DNA of 64,000 bases from Macrostomum lignano. Its lineage: Eukaryota. The position numbers and the translations under genes were made by a program. How positions within the stretch are numbered: position 1 is the first letter of the stretch; each line of letters starts with the position of its first letter. The notes beneath the pieces are model-generated. The model saw nothing but the letters and a program-made list of their open reading frames with translations. It did no database searches and had not been told where the DNA came from. This document shows, piece after piece, positions 8,950 through 64,000 of the stretch. Location: assembly GCA_002269645.1 (NCBI GenBank), contig NIVC01000512.1, positions 203,967 through 267,966 on the forward strand, in the 5' to 3' direction.

Positions 8950-10074
8950 TCACGGATGAAAACTCCCCTCCGAGTTCACTGGCGCCTGGCATCGCTGAGA
9001 ACCCTCGCCGATTGCATTCGTGTCCGAACTTGCCTTTTTATTTAGACACCTTAATCCGGTGCCGGTGGTACCTGGACGAGCGGCTGCAGTGGCTGCGGCA
9101 GCTGCTGCTGTTGCAGCGGCAGCGCCCGCACCCTCCTGACTGCCACAGCAGCAGACGTTGGCTCGGAAAGTTCGGCTGCACAGCAGCAGCACGCAGAAGT
9201 TCAGACAGGAGTTGACCGGGACAAAGGCGAAGCTCCAGGCGACGGGCAACACCAGGCGGTCCAAAGTAGCCAGCAGCATCTGTGGACCTTGGTCGACTAC
9301 TTCGGCTGCGAGTACGCGGCCGACGGTCAGCAACTGCAGGCCAACGAAGGGGAACTCGAGGACCGCGAAGCCGAGAGACAGCAGCAGAACCATGCGGCAG
9401 CTGCGCTGCAGATTCTGATGGTGGAAGGCCTGCCGGTGGAGGGCCAGGGCCGTGCGAGTCCCCAGAGCAACGATGCAGAATCCGGGAGCCAGGGTGCCCG
9501 CGGCCGCCATCAGGGCGAAGCGAACCATCCCCGGCTGCAGCAACTCTCGAACCGTGGCGTTGCTTCCGTCGTCGCCGCCGCTGGTCAAGAAGCTGGAATT
9601 GACGATTGTTTCGCTGACGCACACGAAGCCGACGCCGGCGGCCACAATGACAACAACGGCGACGATTTGCCATCGGCAGCCGAGTCGGCAGAGTCCGCCG
9701 GATCTGCCAGCGGCGCTGCCGCTGCTGAATGGCTTCAGCACGGCGGCTGTGCGGCAGGCTGTGAGCGCCAGCAGCCACCAGTTTCTGATTACGTGCATCG
9801 AGTGGAAGGCCAATTCGAGGCTGGCTGGGCCGCCCAGCTGAGTGAGCAGAAGGTGCAGCGCCAGAGTCACGTTGAGGGCGATCTCCGCACACGCCAGAAC
9901 CAGCAGGCCGTTGTTAGTGCGGCCGCCGTTGGCGCCTCGGCGCCTGCAACGTTGCCCGACAGTGGCGAGGAGCAAGAAGGCGTTGAGGCCACAGCCGAGC
10001 ACAGAGGCTGACAGGGTGGTGCACCAGGCGGCCAAATCGAGAATACTTGGTTCAAAATCCGATTCCGCCTCCAT
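8950..10074 (-). CDS. Intronless class A (rhodopsin-like) orphan GPCR, 374 aa
   Basis: About seven hydrophobic segments; TM1 GxxxN (GCGLN); TM3 end ACRT in place of DRY; TM6 LEFP; TM7 NSCLNF followed by SRTFR helix 8 and a Cys cluster. Confidence 0.85.
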   Translation of the reverse strand: MEAESDFEPSILDLAAWCTTLSASVLGCGLNAFLLLATVGQRCRRRGANGGRTNNGLLVLACAEIALNVTLALHLLLTQLGGPASLELAFHSMHVIRNWWLLALTACRTAAVLKPFSSGSAAGRSGGLCRLGCRWQIVAVVVIVAAGVGFVCVSETIVNSSFLTSGGDDGSNATVRELLQPGMVRFALMAAAGTLAPGFCIVALGTRTALALHRQAFHHQNLQRSCRMVLLLSLGFAVLEFPFVGLQLLTVGRVLAAEVVDQGPQMLLATLDRLVLPVAWSFAFVPVNSCLNFCVLLLCSRTFRANVCCCGSQEGAGAAAATAAAAAATAAARPGTTGTGLRCLNKKASSDTNAIGEGSQRCQAPVNSEGSFHP

Positions 10075-49212: not shown

Positions 49213-49872
49213 GCAAATGTGTTTTATTTAAACAGTAAAACGGCTAACTCAATACGCGTAATTTCAATAAGCGTCGAAGTTCTCAAACTTGAAAACGAGA
49301 TCTGTGTTTAAAACGAGATTTATAGAATGCTCAACACCAGATTGAGCAACTTCCGCTTTGAAACAGTGCACTCAAACCTTGTCAAGTAGATATGCAATAA
49401 ACTTAAAAAAAGAGCGCTTCAAGTGATACTCATAATTTACATAATTGTAAATCGTTCTGGAACAGTTAAATTCAATAAACTTGTTTTACCAGACCTGTTG
49501 TTTTTAGATAGCTAGCTACGCAAAATACTGTAACATTTCAAAGGACTTCAGTAGTATGGGATAACAGAACTCTGCCGCAGGAATTTCCGTGGAAAAACCA
49601 TGGGCCCTAGTGAGTGAACATACGGCCCTATGTAAATGCATAGGTGGACTCTGCCGCAGGGAAAGCCATGGAAATTCCATGGGGGGCACATCGGGTGGGC
49701 ATGGGGGCCCGGTGAGATAACAAAGCGCATGCTGGTATATGTACTGAAGGAAACTCATTGTTGCACCCACCCCACTCCGCCTAGAAAGTATATATAAGAT
49801 GGGCGATTTTTTGAGGTTGGCTTCATGACGAAAGGAATTTTTGTGCATCTTTCTTAAAGAAACATCTCATTA

Positions 49873-50607
49873 ATGGATCTCTGTGACGGCTTCAAAGTTC
49901 AAGTGCAAGAGTACGAAGGTCATCGCTTTATTGCAATCCGACGTTTCTTCTCCTCTGAAAGCGGGCTCAGAGCGGGCATCCCTGGCTTTAACCACAATGC
50001 ATACCAATGGGAGAAGTTGAAGCAGCTGAAACGCCAGCTTGTGCACTCGGCAGTCAATCGGCACAGCGTCACAGTCAAGCTTGGCTTTGATAAACTCGTT
50101 GTGGTCAGCAGGGGTATCATCTGGCTGAAGCGTCTGCCGGAAGACTGTACAGAGGATTATCTGCGGCGGAACTCAGTGGCGCTGACTCCCCGTCTATGGG
50201 GACAACTCTGGAAGAAGGCCGAGTGGATCGACAACGAGCTGCGAGAGAAGTCGGCGGAGAGTGAGTATCAGCTGGAGACCGAGGACATCAAGCATGAGGG
50301 CCAAGAAACTCTGCCGGTCAGCGAAGAAGAAGAAGAAGAAGAAGAGGAGAAGAGGCTGCGCATCGTCGAGTCGGACAATGCAACCAGCTCGCCTGTTCTG
50401 CCAGAGACTTCAGTCGGGCGCATACCCCAGCAAGACAGCGACCTGTCGCACGACCCACTGTGGTACCGGTTCCGTGCTGCTTCAGGGCTCGGCAACAGCG
50501 GCTGTCACAAACGAAAGCTTCCGTGGCCCCTGCGCAGGCAAAATGCAATCAAGTTGCCCAAAGTGATCAATGGTGGAGAGGATGGTGACGCAGACAAAAG
50601 TGCTTGA
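49873..50607 (+). CDS. Tandem PC4-like (ssDNA-binding/coactivator) protein with acidic tail, 244 aa
   Basis: Repeat 1 VQVQEYEGHRFIAIRRFF..GFNHNAYQWEKL; repeat 2 ..NSVALTPRLWGQL; both match the PC4 pattern (V..F.G...IDIR.Y..GI.L...QW..L). TATATATAAG at 49789. Confidence 0.75.
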   Translation: MDLCDGFKVQVQEYEGHRFIAIRRFFSSESGLRAGIPGFNHNAYQWEKLKQLKRQLVHSAVNRHSVTVKLGFDKLVVVSRGIIWLKRLPEDCTEDYLRRNSVALTPRLWGQLWKKAEWIDNELREKSAESEYQLETEDIKHEGQETLPVSEEEEEEEEEKRLRIVESDNATSSPVLPETSVGRIPQQDSDLSHDPLWYRFRAASGLGNSGCHKRKLPWPLRRQNAIKLPKVINGGEDGDADKSA

Positions 50608-50827
50608 TAACTTTTTAAGTGACTATGCGTGGACATTGCTATGCCATCTGTATTGATGTCTAACAGTTCTATTTATCCAGCTTTTTCAGCTTATTCATTA
50701 ATGTCCTATTAAATGAGCTCGTTTAAAATTAAAAATAAAATAAAATAAGCATCTCTCTCTATAATTATGCTAGTTCACTGGTGAACTTAAGAATGCGAAA
50801 TGAGTTTAATTTTTTCTCTAATTAAAA

Positions 50828-51889
50828 ATGGAAAAAATTTACTTTAACCCTGAGCAGCCAGCAAGCTTTTCTGGCTGCAATAAATTTATTAATGAAGTTC
50901 GCACGCAGGGTATCCGAGTGAGTGAAAAAGCTGCGAAAAACTGGCTTAACGATCAGACAGTCTACACATTACATAAGCCAGCAAGGAGGAATTATCCGAG
51001 GGCCCCAATCATAGTTCGAAGCATTGATGACCAATGGGAGCTGGTGGAGATGATTCCTTTTTCCAAGTATAATAACGGCTACAGGTATATTCTAACATGC
51101 ATTGATGTGCTGTCCAAGTACGGATGGGAGAGGGCATTAAAAAACAAGTCTTCTATTGAAGTGAAGTCGGCATTCGAGAGCATATTCAGAAGTTCAAAGC
51201 GGCAACCGCGCACTGTTCGCACTGATCAAGGGAAAGAGTTTATCAACTCTACTTTTCGCCAATGCTGTATGGAAAGGGGAATCCTGGCATTCCCAACCAA
51301 CAGTGAGCAGAAGGCGGCTGTCATTGAACGATGGAACCGAACTTTAAAGAGCAAAATGTGGCGCTACTTCACCCACAACAGCACTCTGCATTGGCTTGAT
51401 GTGCTGCCTAAGCTAGTGAAGTCCTACAACAAAACTTACCACAGAAGCATACGAATGGCACCAACGAATGTCAGCCAGGAGAACGAGTCCGAGGTCTGGA
51501 TGAGCTTATATGACGGGAAAGCGATTGAAACTGTGGAAAAGCTGGGAAAGCCAAAGTTCAGCGAAAACCAGTCTGTGCGGATTTCCAATGCACCCAGGCT
51601 TTTTAGAAAAGGGTACAAGGCCAACTGGAGCAAAGAAGTGTACACGGTGGTGTCCAGAGCTCCAAAGCATTATCCCTACATGTACAAGATAAAAGACATG
51701 AAAGGAGAAGAGATTCGTGGGCTTTTTCACGAGCATGAACTGCAGGCCGTTCCGAAGTCGCAGCGGCTGTATGTGATTGAGAAGATTTTGAAGACTGAGA
51801 AGCGGCAGGGAAAGATCCGATATCTGGTCAAGTGGGCCGGCTACGACTCCACTGACTGGGTGGATGAGAAGGACTTAAGAAAAGTGTAA
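50828..51889 (+). CDS. Maverick retroviral-like (rve) integrase with C-terminal chromodomain, 353 aa
   Basis: YYNP..SFSG-type N-terminus, IDVLSKY, RTDQGKEF and ERWNRTLK; chromodomain YVIEKILK..RYLVKWAGY..WV. The first catalytic Asp appears deleted (DQWE-LVEM). Confidence 0.95.
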   Translation: MEKIYFNPEQPASFSGCNKFINEVRTQGIRVSEKAAKNWLNDQTVYTLHKPARRNYPRAPIIVRSIDDQWELVEMIPFSKYNNGYRYILTCIDVLSKYGWERALKNKSSIEVKSAFESIFRSSKRQPRTVRTDQGKEFINSTFRQCCMERGILAFPTNSEQKAAVIERWNRTLKSKMWRYFTHNSTLHWLDVLPKLVKSYNKTYHRSIRMAPTNVSQENESEVWMSLYDGKAIETVEKLGKPKFSENQSVRISNAPRLFRKGYKANWSKEVYTVVSRAPKHYPYMYKIKDMKGEEIRGLFHEHELQAVPKSQRLYVIEKILKTEKRQGKIRYLVKWAGYDSTDWVDEKDLRKV

Positions 51890-51901
51890 GATGCCGACAT
51901 T

Positions 51902-52729
51902 GTGCAGCCATTCCCAATTATGAGAAGCATCATCATTAACAGCGAAAATGCTGAAGGTACTCCTACTGACTTTCATTTTCACCTGCCTTCACCTATTTAC
52001 TTGGATCGAAATGTGGACTATGAGGCAGGTCTGGCTGAAATCCATCTGCCTGCTGCATGGTTCAATGTTGACGAGCCTTACTGCTTCACTGTCTCAGATG
52101 GAAGAGAGCATGAGGCCTTGGTTCTTCAACCCAGACGCTTTGCTAGAGTGGAGGAGTTGGTGGAGCGCATGAATGAGCTGCTGGCCAACTCTGAGTCACT
52201 GTTCTTCGATGCAATGAGCGAGAGGGAGTCTGAAATGGAGGCTGATGAGTCTGGTTTAATGGGGCGGAGCAGCGCTAGAGATATTGGCATAAAGTTTGAG
52301 ATCCAAGAATTGAGAACGGTAGTGCTCAACAACACGGCTCGAGCAGAATTATTCCTTCCATCAAGTAAAATTTTGCAGTGGCTGGGATTCGGAAATCAGT
52401 CCGTGAAAATTCCACCTGGGCGCCAAGTTTCCATGTACCACATTGGCTGCCCGCCCACCAATCTGATCAACGTGCATTGTAGCATTGTGGAGTCAACTAA
52501 TTGCAACTGGAATTCCCTGCTGCGAACTGTGAACATGAATCCTGAAGCCGGATGGGGAAGCTACTGGAGCAAAGTGTTTAAGAAAACAGTTTTCTTCCCC
52601 ATTCAGAAAACAAATTTTCTACACAGCATTCGAGTTCAACTGCGAGACATCTTTGGCTTCTCACTGACTGCTCATAGCGGCAGCCCTGTTCTGCTCACAA
52701 TTCTGATACGTGAGACACCAATTCAATGA
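51902..52729 (+). CDS. Minor capsid (penton-like) protein, 275 aa
   Basis: N-terminal FHFHLPSPIYL..YEAGLAEIHLPAAWFN and C-terminal FFPI..SIRVQLRD..G..LTILIR fit Polinton pentons; position follows the integrase. Confidence 0.8.
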   Translation: MQPFPIMRSIIINSENAEGTPTDFHFHLPSPIYLDRNVDYEAGLAEIHLPAAWFNVDEPYCFTVSDGREHEALVLQPRRFARVEELVERMNELLANSESLFFDAMSERESEMEADESGLMGRSSARDIGIKFEIQELRTVVLNNTARAELFLPSSKILQWLGFGNQSVKIPPGRQVSMYHIGCPPTNLINVHCSIVESTNCNWNSLLRTVNMNPEAGWGSYWSKVFKKTVFFPIQKTNFLHSIRVQLRDIFGFSLTAHSGSPVLLTILIRETPIQ

Positions 52730-53036
52730 ACTATCAGCAGCTGATTCGGCAGTATTCAGGGACTCGGACGGGAAATGAAAAGTCCGTGCTCTATGGCTGC
52801 GGGAGTTTTCCTGGAATAATGACTTACCAGCCTCCTCCAGCACCTTCCATAACATCATCATCATCATTAGCATCAAAGCCTGTACAAACCAGCAGTAGCA
52901 GCAGAAGCAATAGTACGAGTAATAGAAACATAGGAAATCAAGGACAGGCTAAAAAGGTGAATAAGAAGCAGGTGCGCATGAAAAAGAAGAAAAAAAGTGG
53001 CGAAGCACGCAAAACAAGCAAGGTCAGAACAAGCAA

Positions 53037-56000
53037 CACAGGTAGGAGGAATTCAAGTTAAATGCAAAAAAATTGCCCATAATCGGTTTTTTGCTCATGG
53101 GATAGAATTTGTACTCCTGATTCTAAAATGACCTCCCATGAAATCCTAACTGATTGGGTTCGCGAGAAATGCTCATAATTAAGTTTTTACCATAGATATG
53201 AGGCAGTCCAACAAGCAAAGCTCGCCATTCAAGGATAAGTTGAATGTATTTTGTCCAAAACAGTTCTCACCACTGTGAATTCAATTTGTAGTGTGCAATA
53301 GTTCAGGCACTATTTCAAAATATATATATTAATTTAAACAGTGAATCAGCAAATTAATAATTATTATCATTATTTACCTATAGAATTTTTAAGATAATGG
53401 CTAATCTTTCTAAGTCTAAACCAAAACAGAAAACTGTAATGCAATAGATATTGAGCTGTAAATTCAAATAGATTGTCATTGAGCATTTTTAGTTTTACAA
53501 GCAATTACAAATGACAGCTATTATATTGTACCGTAGCCTGTAGAAGCTGTTGTCCCATCGCTGGGTCACCACTCCGGCGCTTAAAGTTTTGCCATACTTT
53601 ACTGAAATCATGGTGAGCACTTTCACCAGCCTGCTCAGAAAATGTGCCCAGGCCTTTGCCATGCAGTCTGCAAAACTCGACCACATGGACGAACACGCAG
53701 TGAACTTTTGGTGTCACTCTAATAGGTAGCTTGCAGTAGGACTCTCGAAACTGCTGAATCAGCTGTTCATATTCAGGCTGTAGCTTCTCCCCAAAGCAAG
53801 CGTGTACCACTTCACGGAAGCATCGAAGGGCTTCACCAAACTGCTTCAGCTGCTCAGGCAGGATGCTCGTCAGTTCATCAGCTAGTTGCAGGATTGCGTG
53901 GCACTGGTTGCCCTCGAATGATCCTCCGCGATAGTCAGCGCGCCCGATGTTATGGCTTGCAGCCCAGCTGAGTACATGACCTCCGTCAGCTTCAAGCGAG
54001 TCGACGATCTTGTTAACAACTCCAATGAGAAGATGCAGTTCAGGTGGGGGCAGCTTGTTGAGTATCGGCTCATCTTCTCCACCAGACAAAAGGGGTTTGT
54101 TAACACAGCTTTTAAAAAGCTTGGCCGATCGCAACTCATTGCCTGCTTCGGAAAAGGCAGCTGCATTCTTTGTTACACTGCCAAATGTGCGCGTCAGACC
54201 ATCCGCAGCGAATGGAGCCTTTGCCTCGCACCATGTACATGGGTACATTGCCGCGTGATTCTGCAAGCCAATCACTATGTTGGCAAGCTTGAGATCACAA
54301 GCAACAGTAAACGAAATCGCCTGTAGATTCAGAGAGTCCAGTAGTAGTTTTACGTTGAGATAAGTCTCACTAACATCAGGAGCAATAGCGATGATCATTA
54401 ATTTTTTAACACCAGAGTTGAGAAACTGGCGGCTGCAGGCTAACTTCTTTACTGGCGATGCTGCAGGCTCAGACTCACCGGTCACAGTCAGCACAACTTT
54501 CAGAGAGCCTCCTCCACCATCAATTCCAATCTTGACAAAGCTGTTCTCGATGCCACGCTCGGTGCAAATATGATTTAGCAAACCTTGAAGATCGGAGCAG
54601 ATCACGGCTGGCCTTGGTCCCGAAACCTCCTGAGTCTGTCCAGATGAACGTATGAATGGCAGCTGAACAAACGTGAAGAAGCTTGTTAGGCAGCGGCCTC
54701 TCTTCTGCAGCTCTTCACGAAGGTTAGGCTCGATCACATGCCGGCCTGCACCTAACTTAAGAATTCTGGCCAGCTTTAGAGTCTGCTTGCTGCTTAAACT
54801 AAGGCCGACTTTCAAAGCCGAAATTGTTTCGTGGCTTATATATCCTTTCCTAGAAACACTTGTTATAGGTTCAGCGGCTGAGCTAGAAGCTACCTTGACT
54901 CGAAGAGGTTTACCAGCAGTTTGACTTAGTACAATACCACCTGCTGCAGTCTCATTACACTCCTTGATGACTGAGCTAGCCAGCTGGTGCTTGGTAAGAG
55001 GAGATATTTTGTCTCGCAAATTCTTTAATTTGGTTGTTTTATTGCAGCGATGCTCCAGGCCGGGTCCGATCCGTGACATGCAATGCGAGCAGAGTTTTTG
55101 AATCGCAGTAGCCTCTGCCACAGCAGGACGACCTCGGCCTGCTGGTGGACCTGTGGCCAAGTATTTGGTGTCTGGCACTGCACTGCTGCTCCTGTGTGAG
55201 CTGGCCAAGCTACACAGCTCACAGTTGCAGTCAGGGTTGCCACGAGTTGAAGGCGGCAGAGACTGAAGGTCGGTAACTATCTGGTCATACGCCAGTAGGA
55301 CTGGAATAGGTCGCGAATCTGGGCAGGACAAAGACGAAAGCTTCCTTCTGCAGCCGTCACATATGCCAGATGGAAGATATTGTCTTTCTACCTTGAAGCC
55401 TTCGTACACTGTAGATTGAATTAGTTCAATCTGATGCTCCGTCAAAGGGCGATGCGCTCTTCGAAGACACATGGCACACAGTGCCTGGAGATTTTCTTCG
55501 TGGTTTCTTTTCTTTGGCATTGTAGATGATGATGAGTAAAAACAAGAAAATTGTTTGGACAGTTGATCAATTGAAACAAAATATTCTAAAATGCTCTAAA
55601 TACTCATTTACATCACCATAAATTGAGCAACTGCTCATGATTTAGGTATAAAGGGATCGATAAAAAATAATGTGCAAATCGTGTGAGTGTGATCACAAGC
55701 AAAATTTTGCCTTTTGCCGTTTAATGGTGGCGGGTTGAATGTACATATTTTTATCGATTATACGTCAGGTGATTTTTTTGCATATTTCATGATCGTGGTG
55801 GTAAATAGACTTAGAAAACTGTACAATACTTGTTATCTTCTCTAATTTAGAGAATCAAACTTATTTATATAGAAGAGGCCAATTCTTTACGCTAAGAATG
55901 TACAGCATAGCATCAGTTGTAACATCGCACACTTAACAAAGTTGCCTTGAGTTTTTTGTTTTGTTTTACCCTACAAAAAGGATGATTAAACATACATGCA

Positions 56001-56259
56001 CTCAATACAAATTGAATTCACAGTGGTGAGAACTGTTTTGGACAAAATACATTCAACTTATCGTTGAATGGCAAGTTTTGCTTGTTGGACTGCCTCTTAT
56101 CTATGGTAAAAACTTAATTATGAGCATATCTTGCGAACCCAATCAGTTAGGATTTCATGGGAGGTCATTTTAGAATCAGGGGTACAAATTCTATCCCATG
56201 AGCAAAAAACCGATTATGGGCAATTTTTTTGCATTTAACTTGAATTCCTCCTACCTGTG
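53037..56259 (-). mobile_element. Chapaev-type (RAG1/Transib-related) DNA transposon, 3.2 kb
   Basis: 254-bp TIRs (53037-53290 / 56006-56259) with ~7 mismatches; CACAGGT...ACCTGTG ends; 4-bp TSD GCAA (53033-53036 / 56260-56263). Confidence 0.9.
53505..55520 (-). CDS. Chapaev/RAG1-like DDE transposase, 671 aa, intact
   Basis: N-terminal H-x7-CxxC..P..ICxxC Chapa finger; IDGG; ACDLKL..GLQ..YPCTWC; PELHLLIG; TPKVH..H; SEQAGESAH. These parallel RAG1 GYDEKL..GLE..YICTLC, DALHCDIG, TNYFH and SEGNES. Confidence 0.88.
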   Translation of the reverse strand: MPKKRNHEENLQALCAMCLRRAHRPLTEHQIELIQSTVYEGFKVERQYLPSGICDGCRRKLSSLSCPDSRPIPVLLAYDQIVTDLQSLPPSTRGNPDCNCELCSLASSHRSSSAVPDTKYLATGPPAGRGRPAVAEATAIQKLCSHCMSRIGPGLEHRCNKTTKLKNLRDKISPLTKHQLASSVIKECNETAAGGIVLSQTAGKPLRVKVASSSAAEPITSVSRKGYISHETISALKVGLSLSSKQTLKLARILKLGAGRHVIEPNLREELQKRGRCLTSFFTFVQLPFIRSSGQTQEVSGPRPAVICSDLQGLLNHICTERGIENSFVKIGIDGGGGSLKVVLTVTGESEPAASPVKKLACSRQFLNSGVKKLMIIAIAPDVSETYLNVKLLLDSLNLQAISFTVACDLKLANIVIGLQNHAAMYPCTWCEAKAPFAADGLTRTFGSVTKNAAAFSEAGNELRSAKLFKSCVNKPLLSGGEDEPILNKLPPPELHLLIGVVNKIVDSLEADGGHVLSWAASHNIGRADYRGGSFEGNQCHAILQLADELTSILPEQLKQFGEALRCFREVVHACFGEKLQPEYEQLIQQFRESYCKLPIRVTPKVHCVFVHVVEFCRLHGKGLGTFSEQAGESAHHDFSKVWQNFKRRSGDPAMGQQLLQATVQYNSCHL

Positions 56260-56371
56260 GCAAGCAACCTAAGAAAAGAACGACTAAAACACAGACCAAG
56301 AAAACAGGCAAAAGAAACCAAAAAGTGGGCAAAGAAACTGTGAAGCGTGTTCTGGACTCGCTCTCATAGCA

Positions 56372-57655
56372 ATGGCTTACGGATTCAACCCGAGACTCGA
56401 TTTGTTCAAGTCCCCCGTGCTGCAGACTGCTATTGAAAAATCCACGTATGTTGATATTCACCCCGTGAACTCTATTACTACTAACTCACCTATTTAATTC
56501 GACTGCCATCCATCGGCTGATGAGTACACTGATCTGCTGAGCTCATTCCTGTATATTCGCTGTCGCCTAGTCCGGCTTGGCGGGGCTTTGATGAGGGAGG
56601 AGGTTCGGAATGCCGATGGAGTTGTCACTGAGCGCAGAGACAGTGGGGTGCACCCAGAAAACTTTGTCCTATCTACGGCATTCTCAGATGTAATCGTGAG
56701 CATCAACCAGCGCATTGTATCAGGTGGAGACCAGCTCTACCCCTACCATGCCTACCTAAAAGCTCTCATGGGCTCATCCGATGCTCAGCAGTTAAATTTC
56801 TACCCCGCCGGATTCCTGGAACCCGAAACTGCTGCTGAGGGGCATGCCGAGAGACACAGGGAGTCCCGCTGGGTGGAGTATGCGGGACCGCTGCTCAGCG
56901 ACATCTTCCAGTGTCCTGTTCTGCTGCTGAACAATTTACACCTGCACATCAAGCTGATGCCCAGTGAAGCTGCATTTGCCATCCGAACCCCAGATGAGAA
57001 CAACACAGCCTACCGAATGGAAATCTCCCATTGTATTCTGAACCTGCGCCGAGTCAAAGTGGCGCCTCACATCAGCCTAGCGCATGAGCAGGGACTTACC
57101 AATCAGAACGCACTTTACCCCATCGAGCGAACCGAAATGCAAAACTTCATTCTACCCCAGGGAATTCAGTCAAAAAACATTGAAGGATTCACCCATGGCA
57201 AACTGCCGAAGTTCGTTATGCTGGTCTTCGTGAACCACCGAGCCTTCAATGGCCATCACCATTCCAGCCCCTTCGAGTTCCAGAGCTTCAACCTCAGCCA
57301 GCTAGCACTAAAGAAAGGTGGTGAAGCCATGTGCCACGCTGCATTTGCACCTGAGAATAATTCATTCGTGAGAGAGTACTTGCACTACCTGAAAAGCTGT
57401 CAGTCAGCCAGCCCTACCAACTCGGTTCCGTGGGTCCCCTACCAGTTGTTCTCCAACGGCAACACAGCTTTCGCATTCGATCTCACGCCCTAGGGAGCGG
57501 CCCTGTGGTACGGACAGAAGGAGGGAAATTTGCGGCTGGAGATTCGCTTCCGACAGGCCCTGGAGGAGCCTGTATCTCTGATTGTTATGTGCCTGTATGA
57601 CTCACTGATTGAGGTCACGAAGCACAGGGAGATTCTGCTAGATTTTCCATCCTAG
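56372..57655 (+). pseudogene. Double jelly-roll major capsid protein with two in-frame nonsense codons
   Basis: Single frame from LDLFKSPVLQTAIEK to FAFDLTP*..GNLRLEIRF..LIEV..REILLDF; premature TAA at 56495-56497 and TAG at 57491-57493. Confidence 0.88.
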
Positions 57656-57678: not shown

Positions 57679-58197
57679 ATGGATGCTTTTCAACTGCTTA
57701 AACTGGCTAAAAGCTTTTTGCCACAAAATAACTGTTTAATTATTGTCTTGAATTCAATAAATAAAACATCTTATGCTTTAAACTTTATTCAGCGAGCAAC
57801 TCTCAAAAGAAATTTATCTCGATGTAAGTTTATTTTCTTTCTGCTTCAGTACGGCTCGTCCTTTGGTCACTGGGTGGTTTGTTATGCTGATAAGGAGAAT
57901 TCCATAGAACTCTTTAACTCTCTGGGCTGGGACTCAAGCACTTTAGAGATCATTCACAGAGCACTGAAATCCTTTTGGTATTCTCCATTCTACTTACGTA
58001 GCAATGTGAATCGAATTCAGAGCTGCAACTCTGCTAAATGCGGTTTGTTCTGTCTCTTGTTTGCCTATCAAAAGTTTCGTTTCAAGCGCTCGTTTGAGTG
58101 GGTTCTGCGGCACCTCCATGCAAATCAGCAGAGCCACTTGAATGAAAGAATTCTGCAAAGGTTTGAGAGTTGCTTAAGAAAAAAGAAATTTAATTAG
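57679..58197 (+). CDS. Adenain-like cysteine protease, 172 aa
   Basis: GHWV (His), ELFNSLG (usually FDS), IQS..S.KCGLFC (Gln and Cys). Confidence 0.9.
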   Translation: MDAFQLLKLAKSFLPQNNCLIIVLNSINKTSYALNFIQRATLKRNLSRCKFIFFLLQYGSSFGHWVVCYADKENSIELFNSLGWDSSTLEIIHRALKSFWYSPFYLRSNVNRIQSCNSAKCGLFCLLFAYQKFRFKRSFEWVLRHLHANQQSHLNERILQRFESCLRKKKFN

Positions 58198-58230: not shown

Positions 58231-58884
58231 ATGGAAACACGTGAGCGGATAAACTGTTATGATGTGCGCCTGCGACAAGGAAGCTGCATGATTGTCAGCG
58301 GGCCTACAAATGCAGGAAAGACAACCTTCGTGAAACATCTGATACAATACAAGGATGTCCTGTTTGATGTGAAGCCTGGGAGAGTTCTGTGGTACTACGG
58401 GATTTCACAAGCAGCACACTCTGAGCTGAGCAGTCTCGGCGTGCACCTGCAGCAGGGATTTCCCAGCAGTATCGAGACCGCACTGAGACCCAATGACCTG
58501 GTTGTATTTGATGACCTGATTGAAGAAACTTCCAATTCTGCTGCAATGCGAAATGTTTTCACTGGAATTGTCCATCATTTGCCCTGCTTTCTGGTTATGC
58601 TGACCCAAAATGTATTTTTTAAAGGGAAGGAGTTGCGAACAATGAGTCTGAATGCGATGTACTTTGTGATCATGAAGAACCCCAGAGACCAGCTGCAGAT
58701 TGCGGCGCTGGGCAGGCAGTGTTTTGCTGAGAAGGCCGGCTTTCTGCTGTCAGTGTTCAAGCACGTGACATCGCACGGCAGGGGAGCCTACCTGCTCCTG
58801 GATTTTCACCCTTCCACCCCTGATGAGCTGCGGGTCCGGGCTCGAATCCTGCCCAATCAGCGACCCCACCTGGTTTACACTTAA
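58231..58884 (+). CDS. A32/FtsK-like DNA packaging ATPase, 217 aa
   Basis: Walker A GPTNAGKT, Walker B LVVFDD, ..HH..LTQN and KNPRD motifs, YLLLDF. Confidence 0.95.
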   Translation: METRERINCYDVRLRQGSCMIVSGPTNAGKTTFVKHLIQYKDVLFDVKPGRVLWYYGISQAAHSELSSLGVHLQQGFPSSIETALRPNDLVVFDDLIEETSNSAAMRNVFTGIVHHLPCFLVMLTQNVFFKGKELRTMSLNAMYFVIMKNPRDQLQIAALGRQCFAEKAGFLLSVFKHVTSHGRGAYLLLDFHPSTPDELRVRARILPNQRPHLVYT

Positions 58885-58901
58885 GAATAACAGCCGAGAT
58901 T

Positions 58902-59249: not shown

Positions 59250-59935
59250 GTTCTCAGAAATGGTTCTGATCCCCAAGTCAGAATACGATATGCTCACACA
59301 GAATTTGAAGCCAGTCGAGTCTGAAATGGACACTGCTGTGAGATATGCGCAGAGGAAATGCAATGATATTTTGCTTGCCGAGGATTGCCCAGACGATGTG
59401 AAAGCTGCCAGCTGCTCTTGATGCGATGAAGAGTTTGCTGGCCAAGCGCAAGCGGACTGGAAAGGATGGTGCGGTACCTGCGAGTGATGCAAAGATGCTG
59501 AAAACTGATATTGCACCAAGCAGCTGGGGGGAAAAGATCACCCAATCCGTGCCGCAGAAGTTTAAAGCGAGAGCCCGCAGTCTATGGGCCATCCTATCTG
59601 GCAATCCCTCTCTGATTCGGGTGTCCGAAAATGGCGAGGCGCAAATTTCTGGGAAGACAATACCCTCCTCAAACATCCTGGATTTGTTTCACAGTGCCGT
59701 GAGGGATTCGAAATGTGCCAGCGAGCCGGTGGGCTGGAGTGAGTTTGTCTCATTGCTCCAAGACAAAAAGCTTAACATCCCAGCTTCGGCCATAGGAAAG
59801 TTAGTTAGGCAGCTAATTTCTAAACCTGCTGTTTCTCCACAGGCCGCCCCTGCTCATCATACAGTTAAGGGATTCGGGAGTGGGAGAGCTTGGCTACAGC
59901 TGAGCAGGAAAAAACTATTTAAGAAGGGGAACTGA
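59242..59935 (+). pseudogene. Conserved Maverick protein, frameshifted near 59400-59410
   Basis: Upstream part MNKFSEMVLIPK..DILL..PDDVK in one frame; downstream SVPQKFKARA..L..GE..I.G..I..SNILDL..PVGWSEF..LNIP..IG in the next frame. Confidence 0.65.
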
Positions 59936-59959: not shown

Positions 59960-60480
59960 TTGACACCATCCGATCATGAACTAGCTAGCTCGTATATTGA
60001 CTTCCAAGGCTTCCCACGCGAGAGATCGAGCAGAGATTTCGTTGTGAAGGAGCTGGCCATTGCCCAAGTCCGGGCAGGCAGTTACCATATCACTCATCAC
60101 GTGTACGCCTCTCCGTTCTCATGGGACAGAATCTCACCTGAGATGCAAGTACATTACAGAAAGCTCTCAAAGAATTTGCATCATTTCAAGTGGACAGATG
60201 GATCCCGATCGTACGAGCTACATGCATTTGGCAAATGACATTCTAAACATTGCTTACGGCCCCACCTGGACAAGCGGGGTGAAAAAGTCCATCTTTCTGA
60301 CGGAGCTGCTTGGCAGACAGGTGTACAACCTAGAGGATCTGGGATCACCTTTGATTCAAGCATCTGATACTGGTTGTGCAGTGAAAAATGTACTGCTCTA
60401 CTACAACTGGCTGAAGCCAAAGTTCTGTATCAACTTAAGAAGCGAGTTGTGCCCGCATCACTCAAAGGCTCTCAAAGACA
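59960..60480 (+). pseudogene. DEDD/DnaQ-like exonuclease, frameshifted near 60210-60235
   Basis: IDFQGF..FVVKELA..H..ASP..HHFKWTDG, then NLEDLG..CAVKNVLLYYNWL in the adjacent frame; 3' end approximate. Confidence 0.7.
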
Positions 60481-60507
60481 GCACCACTGACAGAAAGGAC
60501 TCTCTAA

Positions 60508-61074
60508 ATGAGTACACCTGCGACAGCCCTGCGAGTGACCAATCTGGTTGGCGGCGTGGATCTGAGACTGGCTGGAGGCAGGGGTGCCCAGTTGCCTCTG
60601 CGGGAACTGGCTCTCAGCATGACTCATGTCATCTATCGTCCCGTCTGGCCCCGAGTGCTCATCAAGAGGATGCGGAGTCCCAGAGTGACTCTATTGCTCT
60701 ATCCGACTGGACAACTGAGTATCTGTGGCGCCCGGAGCTACTCGGCCTCAGTCAGGGCTGCCCGTCGCTTCGTGGCTATGCTGCATCGCAGAGTTCCGCC
60801 TCAACTGCTGCCTCGTCAATCCGTTTGTGTTCGAATTAAGACTATTACTGCTTATGGAAAAATAGACTTGCCCAAGGCACTATCACTAAGAAACCTCTGT
60901 GAAGTGCTACCGAATGCGAAATATGAACCTGAAAGTTTTACTGCTTTAGTTTGTCAGCTTCAATACTGCAAGTGTACGCTTTTTCACAATGGCTCATTTG
61001 TGCTCAGCGGAGCAAACTCTAAGCATATGCTACAATCAGACCGTTCCCTATTAGCTTGCTTGCTTTCAAACTGA
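60508..61074 (+). CDS. Virus-encoded TATA-binding-protein (TBP) homologue, 188 aa, intact and intronless
   Basis: Two TBP repeats: LRVTNLVG..L.LRELA..YRP..RVL..RSPRVTLLLYPTGQLSICGA and IKTITA..IDL..L.L..YEPESFTAL..CTLFHNGSFVLSGA. These parallel TBP IQNIV/YNPKRF/LIFSSGK..TGA and YEPELFPGL/LIFVSGKVVLTGA. AATAAA follows at 61076. Confidence 0.88.
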   Translation: MSTPATALRVTNLVGGVDLRLAGGRGAQLPLRELALSMTHVIYRPVWPRVLIKRMRSPRVTLLLYPTGQLSICGARSYSASVRAARRFVAMLHRRVPPQLLPRQSVCVRIKTITAYGKIDLPKALSLRNLCEVLPNAKYEPESFTALVCQLQYCKCTLFHNGSFVLSGANSKHMLQSDRSLLACLLSN

Positions 61075-61780
61075 AATAAATAAAAAGAAAGAATAAATCG
61101 CGGCTTGTTTAATTAAAATATTCAAATTATTTCTCTCTCATACACTAGCTTTTTTGTCTTCATTTTTTATTGCATTGAAAAACCAGTGGTGAACATCTTG
61201 TAGAGATAAACAAATAGCAAGCTAAAAGCAAATACGAGCAAGCAGATAAACCACTACAAAAATAGGAAAAAATAGTCCAAAAGCAGATGGAATATATTAA
61301 AACTTATAAAGCAATATCAGGATTCAAAAAACCAACCACAAAGTACAGGTAAAATTAGAAAAAAATAAAACTCTCACATGCCATCACCGCAAACACCACC
61401 ACCACCACTAACGAAGCATTGGTTTCATTATCATCATCGCGCAATTGTAAGTAAATATTGTGAAGCAAAAAATTTTTGCTAGCCTCAGCAGATGATCAAA
61501 CTTTTTATTGCATTTGGAAAAAATCCTATTTAGATTAGCGGTTAACCTTTATTCAATGTCAAAGAAAGAAACTTTGAAATCGCAAAGAATGGACTGGTTT
61601 GTGCGGCGAAAGTGCACAAACCGGCTTTAGTGCCCAGCGCGTTGATTGTACATCGCCGCCTGCCCCCCCCCCTTGGGTGGCAGGGGTGTTTTTAAACCCC
61701 CGTCGCGCTCTACTGGCGGCTCACTTTGCCTTCTCGCAGTGAATTTTTTTTTACTTAGAAATAGAAACTTTTGCTGAGTC

Positions 61781-62841
61781 ATGAACCGCACCCGTAGCCA
61801 GTCAGCCGATTCCGTCCCCACAACTGTGCCAGCACTAAAGGAAACTAAAGGAGCTTGGTTTGCCGACCTCTGGCAACAAAGCAAAACTGGTCCAAAGGCT
61901 TCGCGCCCATATTCAAGACGTGGAGACCTCTGTCGAGAGTGACGAGCTGACGAACGTTCAGGCCAATCTGCGAGCTACAGGGCAGAACTCGGCGGTAGCG
62001 AGCAGCGGGGGCAGCCCCCCAAATCGGCGACAGGTCGAGAACGGTGGGTCTGGCGCGGCTGGCGGCCTGGACGAACAGCTGCTGGAGGCGGAGAAGCGAA
62101 TCCGTCTGCTGAGGCTGCGCAAAGAAGAAGCGCAGCTGGAATCCGAGTTCGCGCAGCTACGGGTCGGCCGTTCTGAGGCACGTGATGTACCGGGTGAGTT
62201 GCTAAATTGCCTAACTGGATGTGTGCAGCATGAAGTTGGGCAGCAGCATGAGAACATGGGAGCCTCAGGGAGAAGTTCCAGTAGCGTCTACCGAATCGTT
62301 GACTTCGTCAGCAAGCGCAAGCAGTGTCTTCTAGGCCAGAGTAAGTCTAAAGAAGTGGCGGTCGAGGCGCTGTCGTTAGGCGATTGGGTGACGGGCAATG
62401 CGCAGGCGATGCTTCAGATGCTGACTGACGGGCGTCTAGTCAGACTGGATCAGCATGGTCGATTGGATGTGGCAGAGCTCAGAGACTATCTCAGGTACAC
62501 CGCACGCATTGGCGAGTTGTTGGACCTGGGCTTCAACAAGAGCCGTGTCATGAGATTTGATGACGAGTGCCGGCTCAGCCAAGCGACTGATGGCAAGTGG
62601 GAGTCGCACAGCTCGGACCTGAGTCTGGTTGCGGCGTACCTCATGGCTCCCCAGAAGCAGCAATGGGGGGGGTGGTGCCCAGAAGCGCAATCAACTGGTT
62701 TGCTTCGACTACAACAGGATACGCGGGTGCGAACGCAAGAGCTGTCGGTTCCTGCATCGCTGCCGAAGATGCGGCCTGGCGCACTCTGAGGCAGCCTTCC
62801 ACCGCGACGAATCGAGCGGTGAGGAGAAACCGCAACACTGA
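61781..62841 (+). pseudogene. gag-like ORF1 with N-terminal SAP domain and C-terminal CCCH zinc finger; two frameshifts
   Basis: TVPALKE/LKELGLPTSGNKAKLVQRL split near 61840; CFDYNRIRGCERKSCRFLHRCRRCGLAH reached after a shift at the G run near 62666-62672. Confidence 0.75.
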
Positions 62842-64000
62842 CTCGATCATAGCGCGAATTTTATTCCTCCTGTTTTATCCTCTGATCTCAATCTGGCCCA
62901 GTGGCAGGCGGAGTTGTCCAAGCTGGATCTTCCGCCCGGTCGGATGGCTTTTATCCTTGATGGTGTTGCTAGTGGCTTTCGCATCACCAATCGTCAGATG
63001 CATGGCAACGAGCTGGTTGAAGTGGCAAACTACTCATCGGTTTTTAAGCACCATGACAGAGTTGCGCGTCAGATTGCTAATGAGCTTCGTCTCGGTCGTT
63101 ATCGTCTCTGTGCTGCTGGTGACAAACCTCGCATAGTCAGCGCCCTTGGTGCGCTGCCGAAGTCCAACGGTGGCGTTCGCTTAATCCATGACTGCAGCCG
63201 GCCGCAAGGGAAGTCTGTCAACTCCGCTTACGAGAGCGAGCAGAGACTGCGTTTCACCTGTGTCCAGAACTTTGCTAAGAGGCTTAAGAAGAATTACTTT
63301 ATGTGCAAGGTCGATCTAAGCGAAGCCTATCGTTCATGTGGGATCCATCCTGACGACCAAAAGTTTACCGGTTTGAAGTTTCGGCTAGGTAGCGATGCTT
63401 GCGACACCTACATAGTGGACACGCGCCTGCCATTTGGTGCTGCTGCTTCCGTCACGGCTTTCTATCATCTCAGCGAGGCGGTCAAGTTGATGATGGTGCA
63501 CCGCGGCTTTGTCAATACTGAGGCCTATCTGGACGATTTTGCCTTTTGCGGTTTGCAAAACGAGTGCGAGGCCTTCTTTAATGTGTTGACGTCGCTGATG
63601 ACCAGACTGGGCTTCACCGTGAATTGGACGAAGTGTCAGCGGCCTTCGCAAAGGATGACGTTTCTCGGTGTGGAGCTCGACACCGTCAAGGGCCTGAAGC
63701 GGCTTTCAGACGAGAAAGTGGAGAAACTTTTAGAGCAACTGGACGATGCTGCTGCCAAGGATCGCATCAGCAAGCAAAGTTTACAGCAGATCATCGGCAG
63801 GCTGGTGTGGGCTTCGCAGGTGATCGAATGCGGTCGCCCCTTTCTTCAGGACCTGATTTCGCGCTCTAACAATTTGGCCGTCGGTCAGCAAGATGAGGTG
63901 GATGCGGCCCTGCGTAGTCAGCTGCGCTGGTGGAAGTGTGCTCTGCTAGCTCAAAGGTGGAAGACTCTCTGGTTCAATGGCGACTTCGATGCCGCGATCG
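62842..64000 (+). CDS. Reverse transcriptase (DIRS/Ngaro type), open to the window end
   Basis: LNLAQW..ILDGVASGFRI, ALPKSNGGVRLIHDCS, KVDLSEAYR, LPFG, AYLDDF, FLGVELDT, IGRLVWA; absent from the ORF track because no stop lies in the window. Confidence 0.93.

Follow-up and report, generated by a model that had tools for sequence, protein, structure and literature searches.

The closest described parallel to a TATA-binding protein (TBP) carried by a Maverick element is the TBP mimic of beta- and gammaherpesviruses, the KSHV ORF24 type, in which a nuclear DNA virus likewise lacks its own RNA polymerase and uses a TBP-fold factor, here on the late box TATTWAA (PMC12529657, in the sections covered). 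In the herpesviruses and the Maverick alike, a variant TATA word is common to the late genes and normal promoters stand before early genes; according to the same sections, ORF24 is large, joins a Pol II-binding N-terminal domain to a DNA-binding C-terminal domain and so contacts Pol II directly, acts as part of a six-protein complex, retains all four intercalating phenylalanines and lacks the acidic residues for TFIIB. In contrast, the Maverick TBP is a bare 188-aa core in which the acidic loop is kept and two of the phenylalanines are changed. Giant DNA viruses also encode two-lobed TBP homologues, usually together with their own TFIIB and polymerase and with diverged adapter residues (PMC7221094, in part). 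Giant-virus TBPs are the best named viral structure matches to the element protein in BFVD (TM about 0.65-0.75, 8-18% identity); unlike that TBP-TFIIB system, the Maverick has no TFIIB that was found and keeps a host-type loop. Cellular TBP and TRF2/TBPL1 share with the element protein the fold, Asn69, the C-lobe Phe pair and a Glu-Pro-Glu loop, whereas the element protein is only 29% identical to host TBP and about 29% to TRF2/TBPL1 (host copies L039 and L040), has Pro and Tyr-Pro in the N-lobe and Thr for Asn159, lacks Pro191 in families A and B, and has no N-terminal extension. Residue numbers for such columns (Asn69, Phe99, Phe116, Asn159, Pro191 and so on) follow what we take to be yeast TBP numbering.

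The element itself shares with Mavericks/Polintons and adintoviruses (PMC8502044, in the text covered) its terminal inverted repeats (TIRs), 6-bp target-site duplication, protein-primed polymerase (pPolB), rve integrase, adenovirus-type protease, putative packaging ATPase and capsid-like genes. An earlier note on this DNA had put the TBP system forward as a candidate for an undescribed one, which is nearly right: the Figure 5 legend of PMC8502044 and of its preprint lists TBP among the genes of related elements, but the covered text gives that label no named carrier element, analysis, promoter word or mechanism, and one supplement of the paper (Starrett) has no match to TBP. No paper on a Maverick TBP-promoter pair was found in a search that took in parts of PMC9089689, PMC12220804 and 10.1101/2025.04.19.649669, with subscription papers and bioRxiv supplements lying outside it. 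What appears to be new here is the lineage-matched promoter words of a Maverick TBP; the TBP label on a related virus was already in print, the figure legend being the only instance found in the sources as covered.

The window is the whole 64-kb stretch of Macrostomum lignano DNA that was analysed. The element begins in it at 49550 and ends beyond it, at base 9261 of the piece L021, and measures 23.7 kb, or about 16.3 kb without two nested insertions. The TBP gene lies inside the TIRs of the element, which the 6-bp duplication flanks, and not outside them as the earlier note had allowed it might. The features are as follows.

49544..49549, + strand: left copy of the 6-bp target-site duplication; its counterpart comes after the right TIR, past base 9261 of L021
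49550..49681, + strand: left TIR, beginning AGTAGTA; 93% identical over 134 nt to its partner at L021 9130-9261
49789..49798, + strand: canonical TATA box TATATATAAG before the PC4-like gene, a probable early promoter for host TBP
49873..50607, + strand: PC4-like ORF, matched weakly by Pfam (E 0.012; the family B version reaches E 5.6e-5)
50786..50793, + strand: TAAGAA box before the integrase
50828..51889, + strand: rve integrase with chromodomain (rve E 2.3e-10); small in-frame core deletion in this copy
51874..51881, + strand: TAAGAA box before the putative minor capsid gene, within the integrase 3' end
51920..52729, + strand: putative minor capsid protein, labelled from position and size; no Pfam match
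52577..52584, + strand: TAAGAA box, 147 nt ahead of the basic ORF
52726..56371, + strand: small ORF for a basic, putative core protein, interrupted here by a nested DNA transposon
53037..56259, no strand assigned: nested DNA transposon, bounded by 257-bp inverted repeats and foreign to the Maverick, since other copies lack it
56268..56275, + strand: TAAGAA box, 102 nt ahead of the major capsid gene
56372..57655, + strand: putative major capsid gene, interrupted by stop codons here; no Pfam match
57679..58197, + strand: adenovirus-type protease (Peptidase_C5, E 3.5e-5, over the cut-off); no box upstream
58173..58180, + strand: TAAGAA box before the ATPase
58231..58884, + strand: P-loop ATPase and putative packaging motor, recognised by its P-loop and weak AAA matches
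58880..58887, + strand: TAAGAA box before ORF105, including the ATPase stop codon
58932..59935, + strand: ORF105 and ORF230; ORF230 is frameshifted here, with no box before it
59918..59925, + strand: TAAGAA box before the exonuclease-like gene
59976..60839, + strand: exonuclease-like gene (putative label), 5' end broken here; its frame overlaps the first 110 TBP codons
60434..60441, + strand: TAAGAA box within the exonuclease-like frame, 72 nt ahead of the TBP start
60508..61074, + strand: element-encoded TBP, 188 aa, two lobes (Pfam, PDB, model, profile alignment)
60508-60839: exonuclease-like/TBP overlap (also L042 6328-6659 and L051 5713-6101)
61075..61080, + strand: AATAAA, probably the late block's poly(A) signal
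61588..64000, + strand: nested retroelement (RT, 164-bp direct repeats), ending at L021 1780

The gene order is PC4-like, integrase, minor capsid, basic protein, major capsid, protease, ATPase, two small ORFs, exonuclease-like and TBP, with pPolB following TBP head-on (convergent). The pPolB gene, broken in this copy, and the right TIR lie past the nested retroelement in L021, outside the window; in the copy L024 pPolB matches PF03175 at E 7e-14. The jelly-roll capsid labels, for which there is no Pfam match, are putative and based on size, order and cross-family similarity. This copy is dead, with several broken genes and two nested insertions, so that its intact TBP ORF has weight only through its family; other copies retain whole frames, e.g. 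a 1200-aa pPolB.

The ORF at 60508-61074 is intact and intronless, as the earlier note had read it; it is 188 aa long, and AATAAA begins at the base following its stop. Pfam PF00352 matches both repeats (E 1.7e-21), and a PDB sequence search returns 35 matches at E<=0.001, all TBPs or TBP fusions, the best being an archaeal TBP (E 1e-15). An AlphaFold model, with a 16-sequence alignment as input, has a pLDDT of 86.5; its top five matches in VIA-align are TBPs (Z 15.6-18.9), the first non-TBP fold following at Z 7.7, and on human TBP it gives Z 18.9 and an rmsd of 2.1 A over 171 residues. The predicted structure is the two-repeat saddle of the TBP family, in the core-only form that had been claimed for it.

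A search of the worm's own genome for TBP gave 151 matches, 150 of them listed. Among those listed, family A accounts for 94 whole, stop-free ORFs at 69-100% identity, a count that is inflated, since even host TBP appears three times. The family B TBP is 37% identical to that of family A and has 17 whole matches, and family B elements have TIRs and the same order from ATPase to TBP; the exonuclease-like gene is directly upstream of TBP in 72 of 73 fetched A/B loci, some of which are the same place. The presence of TBP beside one constant neighbour in other copies and families excludes a one-off retrocopy, which the earlier note had kept in view. Between three A subfamilies dN/dS of the N-lobe (82-93% amino acid identity) is 0.09-0.15, and the C-lobe is 50-73% identical with synonymous sites near-saturated, a contrast between the lobes that is partly due to recombination with a breakpoint inside TBP. 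From these comparisons the element TBP is judged to be under purifying selection and a fixed family gene. Two recombinants (L104, L045) have a left block about identical to the subfamily of this copy and another pPolB, with the switch inside the TBP C-lobe.

A third lineage, clade D, surfaced in the search for TBP-less control families. Its TBP-like frame, with 72 matches in the genome, is recognised by Pfam as TBP in seven of eight members once aligned, and the D alignment finds TBPs in the PDB at E 6e-10 and the A/B profile with 96% probability; a single D protein is recognised by neither Pfam nor the PDB search and reaches a profile probability of 10%, so that the alignment is needed for the assignment. 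Family C (five copies fetched, not all whole) has no TBP-profile match. In all lineages that have it, the TBP gene adjoins replication genes. The fixed partnership with the PC4-like protein that the earlier note had suggested is weakened by these families: the fetched D blocks have TBP and no PC4 match, and the PC4-bearing L131 and L133 have no TBP-profile match. The D frames (L139 1110-1718; L165 5421-5975) begin at a conserved splice-acceptor-like site in eight of eight copies, and a first exon was looked for and none found; in one D subfamily (L173, L167) the TBP frame reads without a stop into a deoxynucleoside-kinase gene, about 470 aa being open. Clade D copies (L140 5246-10000; L142 1-4822) abut other Maverick-like blocks, with a second integrase and capsid gene head-on, which suggests nested or tandem insertions. 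ORFs of family D (L143 3757-4200) and family C (L123 6125-7111) match Adeno_PX, adenovirus core protein X, at E 1.7e-5 and 1.4e-4.

The exonuclease-like gene, a label without a Pfam match, is indeed the co-oriented upstream neighbour of TBP, but it does not merely precede it: its frame runs 110 codons over the TBP N-lobe. This frame is open over 107-111 codons in family A and 129 in family B, in the same relative frame; by synonymous resampling an open frame arises by chance with 0.6-3% probability per family, and synonymous divergence is halved in the overlap. Dual coding of the overlap is possible on these figures. Single-base indels in it give natural exonuclease-like/TBP fusions, e.g. P0023.

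Only two of the four intercalating phenylalanines are retained, and DNA bending by the protein may therefore be weak: the C-lobe pair is kept and the N-lobe columns hold Pro and Tyr. The Tyr and the C-lobe pair had been noted correctly, but the Trp previously assigned to the first column is Trp47, which sits one column earlier, in an Arg column, whether the protein is aligned with host TBP by MAFFT or to a cellular-TBP profile, the Phe column itself holding Pro48; in family B, His precedes the same Pro. Because this Pro falls in the Phe99 column, its reading as a mimic of yeast A100P was dropped. The profile alignment bears out that the first central Asn is kept and the second lost, Asn159 being Thr in 14 of 14 A/B-type proteins. 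Conservation is strongest on the N-lobe DNA-binding face, and there too cluster the substitutions common to A, B and D, i.e. Tyr-Pro for Phe116-Ser117 and Ser or Thr for Val122. The N-lobe of TBP contacts the 3' half of the TATA box, and Val122 has a role in TATA recognition. Pro191 is absent from all 14 A/B-type proteins and present in six of six D proteins. The acidic C-lobe loop, judged from sequence, is Glu-Pro-Glu in 14 of 14 A/B-type proteins and has Asp-Ala/Lys-Glu as its D counterpart; two acidic residues of TBP bind TFIIB (PMC7221094, in part).

The nearest named proteins are Macrostomum lignano gene models (75-95% identity). A profile search of 1.84 billion representatives gave nine proteins at E<=1e-30, eight of element type (four M. 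lignano models and four from ENA, JGI or Logan) and one tandem plant TBP; the relatives P0002-4, P0006-8, P0028 and P0170, from public assemblies, are known from the protein alone. No relative appeared among viral contigs searched with the element alignment and with host TBP, and a metagenome scan yielded five loci, all ordinary TBPs at 23-40% and none of element type. The phylogeny that the earlier note had proposed places A and B on one side (support 91-94), and A, B and D on one side (89), apart from host TBP and TRF2 on long branches (the first tree took in 71 of 72 screened cellular TBPs, the second 20 of these); neither host TBP (p-AU 0.24) nor TRF2 (p-AU 0.55) is rejected as the source of the gene, however, and an ancient host origin is compatible with these trees. 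A recent host retrocopy was rejected on the 29% identity and the fixation in families. Non-rejection of host descent and the dead copy in the window would suit a captured TBP relic with no current function, but the same 29% identity, the purifying selection, the retention in three lineages at 37% identity and below and the relatives in public assemblies count against it; dN/dS well below 1 and fixed synteny largely refute this reading, which we regard as highly improbable.

The earlier note had called for a search for motifs upstream of viral ORFs; by unbiased count TAAGAA is the top 6-mer upstream of the late genes. Late genes of families A and B stand behind (C/T)(T/A)TAAGAA and those of clade D behind TATAAGC. 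TAAGAA precedes eight of ten late genes in each of three A subfamilies and six of ten in B (one at 153 nt), its sense/antisense counts are 5/0, 10/0 and 6/0 (1.2-2.5 expected), and it lies 30-110 nt before ATGs in 4/5, 6/10, 4/4 and 4/6 occurrences, with P of 1e-4 to 2e-3, values that are optimistic since the box and the 30-110 nt range were chosen after viewing family A and the A subfamilies recombine. In the host DNA of the window TAAGAA is not enriched, and TTAAGAA over the whole window (17 against 11.7) is not above chance, the enrichment being confined to the element. In clade D, TATAAGC precedes the minor capsid gene and the next ORF in six of six subfamilies (P 3e-4 and 0.012, position test), and several D late genes have no TATAAGC within 150 nt upstream; the family A protease and ORF230 likewise have no box upstream. 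TIR-proximal genes carry canonical TATA boxes and not TAAGAA. One of these is the family A right-end ORF (L027 132-1280; L043 2729-4063), which has a Cys-rich N-terminus, acidic repeats and a canonical TATA box upstream, and which is a candidate early activator.

With the box set in TATA register, its position 6 is invariably G. A/B boxes start with C in 21 of 31 sites and all 12 conserved D sites start with T, which parallels the absence and presence of Pro191, although this is one contrast between two lineages and not many; Pro191 favours T at box position 1 (PMC12529657, in the sections covered). An altered TBP of their own and a matching TATA word in three lineages make it likely that these elements bring their own promoter switch for host Pol II.

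The box might instead be a weak TATA for host TBP, or signal the 3' end of the gene before it, with the viral TBP acting as a decoy that titrates TFIIB or other initiation factors and damps host transcription or defence. A kept TFIIB loop and a DNA-bending Phe set of which half is changed would suit a decoy, as would the basic residues that family A keeps on the helix used by TFIIA and Mot1 (PMC7221094, in part), and several boxes extend over the stop codon or the end of the coding region of the gene upstream. Against this, conservation is strongest on the very face that binds DNA, the box differs between TBP lineages and tracks Pro191, and family C, the sole TBP-less control, has none of its five TAAG words in promoter position; as for a 3'-end signal, in family A a box stands ahead of the block's first gene, downstream of the preceding AATAAA, and none follows its last gene. 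We consider this explanation unlikely. Of the two uses of host initiation machinery suggested in the earlier note, retargeting by an altered-specificity TBP gains support from the lineage-matched word, but competition gains none specific to it.

In baculovirus late promoters a TAAG core is the start-site element, and TAAG is common to all three lineages here, so the core could be read at the start site, and not at -30, by a helper-virus polymerase or by the viral TBP. The boxes of the B minor capsid gene and the D3 basic gene, only about 10 nt before the ATG, are too close for a -30 element and agree with such a role; however, 30 of the 31 listed A/B sites are 33 nt or more upstream of the ATG, the spacing that a -30 element needs, at the B integrase an out-of-place ATG comes 8 nt past the box and the in-frame one 33 nt past it, and no helper virus is known here. 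A start-site role seems to us quite improbable. The protein could also serve outside Pol II transcription, recruiting Pol III via Brf or bending DNA at the termini in replication, integration or packaging; the acidic loop also serves Brf-type adapters (PMC7221094, in part), and the neighbouring replication genes would fit. Yet the word precedes protein-coding genes ending in AATAAA and not the TIRs, no TAAGAA occurring in the right-end pieces of two copies, and we hold this role to be very unlikely.

Our preferred reading, to which we give a probability of roughly 0.6, is that the conserved Maverick TBP is a late-gene factor that reads the TAAG-core box and recruits host TFIIB and Pol II. Since the TFIIB-binding acidic residues are kept and no TFIIB match lies in the element, the viral TBP would work with host TFIIB and Pol II; the TFIIB family has 15 genome matches on seven contigs, none at the place of an element TBP, in a search that a very divergent TFIIB could escape. 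The host TFIIB gene is split by introns. Host TBP would transcribe the TIR-proximal genes first, via their canonical TATA boxes. The viral TBP would then read the variant box, its altered N-lobe (Pro and Tyr-Pro for Phe and Phe-Ser, Ser/Thr for Val122) dealing with the 3' half, where the G is fixed, and loss of the C-lobe proline in A/B would permit C at position 1, where D, which keeps the proline, has T. The kept acidic loop would bind host TFIIB, making a viral TFIIB or polymerase unnecessary, and capsid, packaging and integrase genes would be timed after replication and stay quiet in integrated copies. Family A TBP itself stands behind the late box, which leaves the source of the first TBP unexplained and counts against a late switch; the family B gene stands behind the canonical TATAAAAG.

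By analogy, such a system most likely works like a stripped-down herpesvirus late switch, yet is not a member of that family. A bolder version, for which we would offer slightly less than even odds, is a self-contained Maverick early/late switch made of a bare TBP core and a private box that co-evolve by lineage and run on host TFIIB; it would be the smallest orthogonal Pol II promoter system known, and would keep thousands of integrated copies silent until particles form. The question bears on how capsid genes are controlled in animal Mavericks, and on whether these have a viral cycle, and it has a direct handle: both the protein and the 8-bp site are defined, and a single laboratory-type flatworm genome offers three natural pairs of protein and box. 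If the preferred reading is true, a second, independent polymerase-less nuclear virus would use a TBP fold for its late genes, more simply than the herpesvirus case, and the lineages would form a natural set of altered-specificity TBPs with which structural rules of TATA recognition can be tested.

None of the sequencing runs listed is recorded as RNA, but two of four show the neighbouring host gene spliced, which means that those runs contain RNA; in these data the element is covered at a low, even level and TBP shows no splice joint, and transcription is not separable from carry-over of multi-copy DNA. The host gene is a small one (47520-49116) that ends about 400 nt before the left TIR, and its introns at 47601-47798 and 47989-48702 are those removed in the two runs. 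The 5' region of the family B integrase (L050 9680-10000) has a GT-AG intron-like interruption, unspliced in one spanning RNA contig. As to the two insertions, the repeats of the DNA transposon at 53037-56259 start with CAC, a 4-bp duplication accompanies it, and its 671-aa transposase-like ORF is whole and has no Pfam match; it is presumably Chapaev/Transib-like. The retroelement between TBP and pPolB (61588-64000 and L021 1-1780) we take to be DIRS/Ngaro-like.
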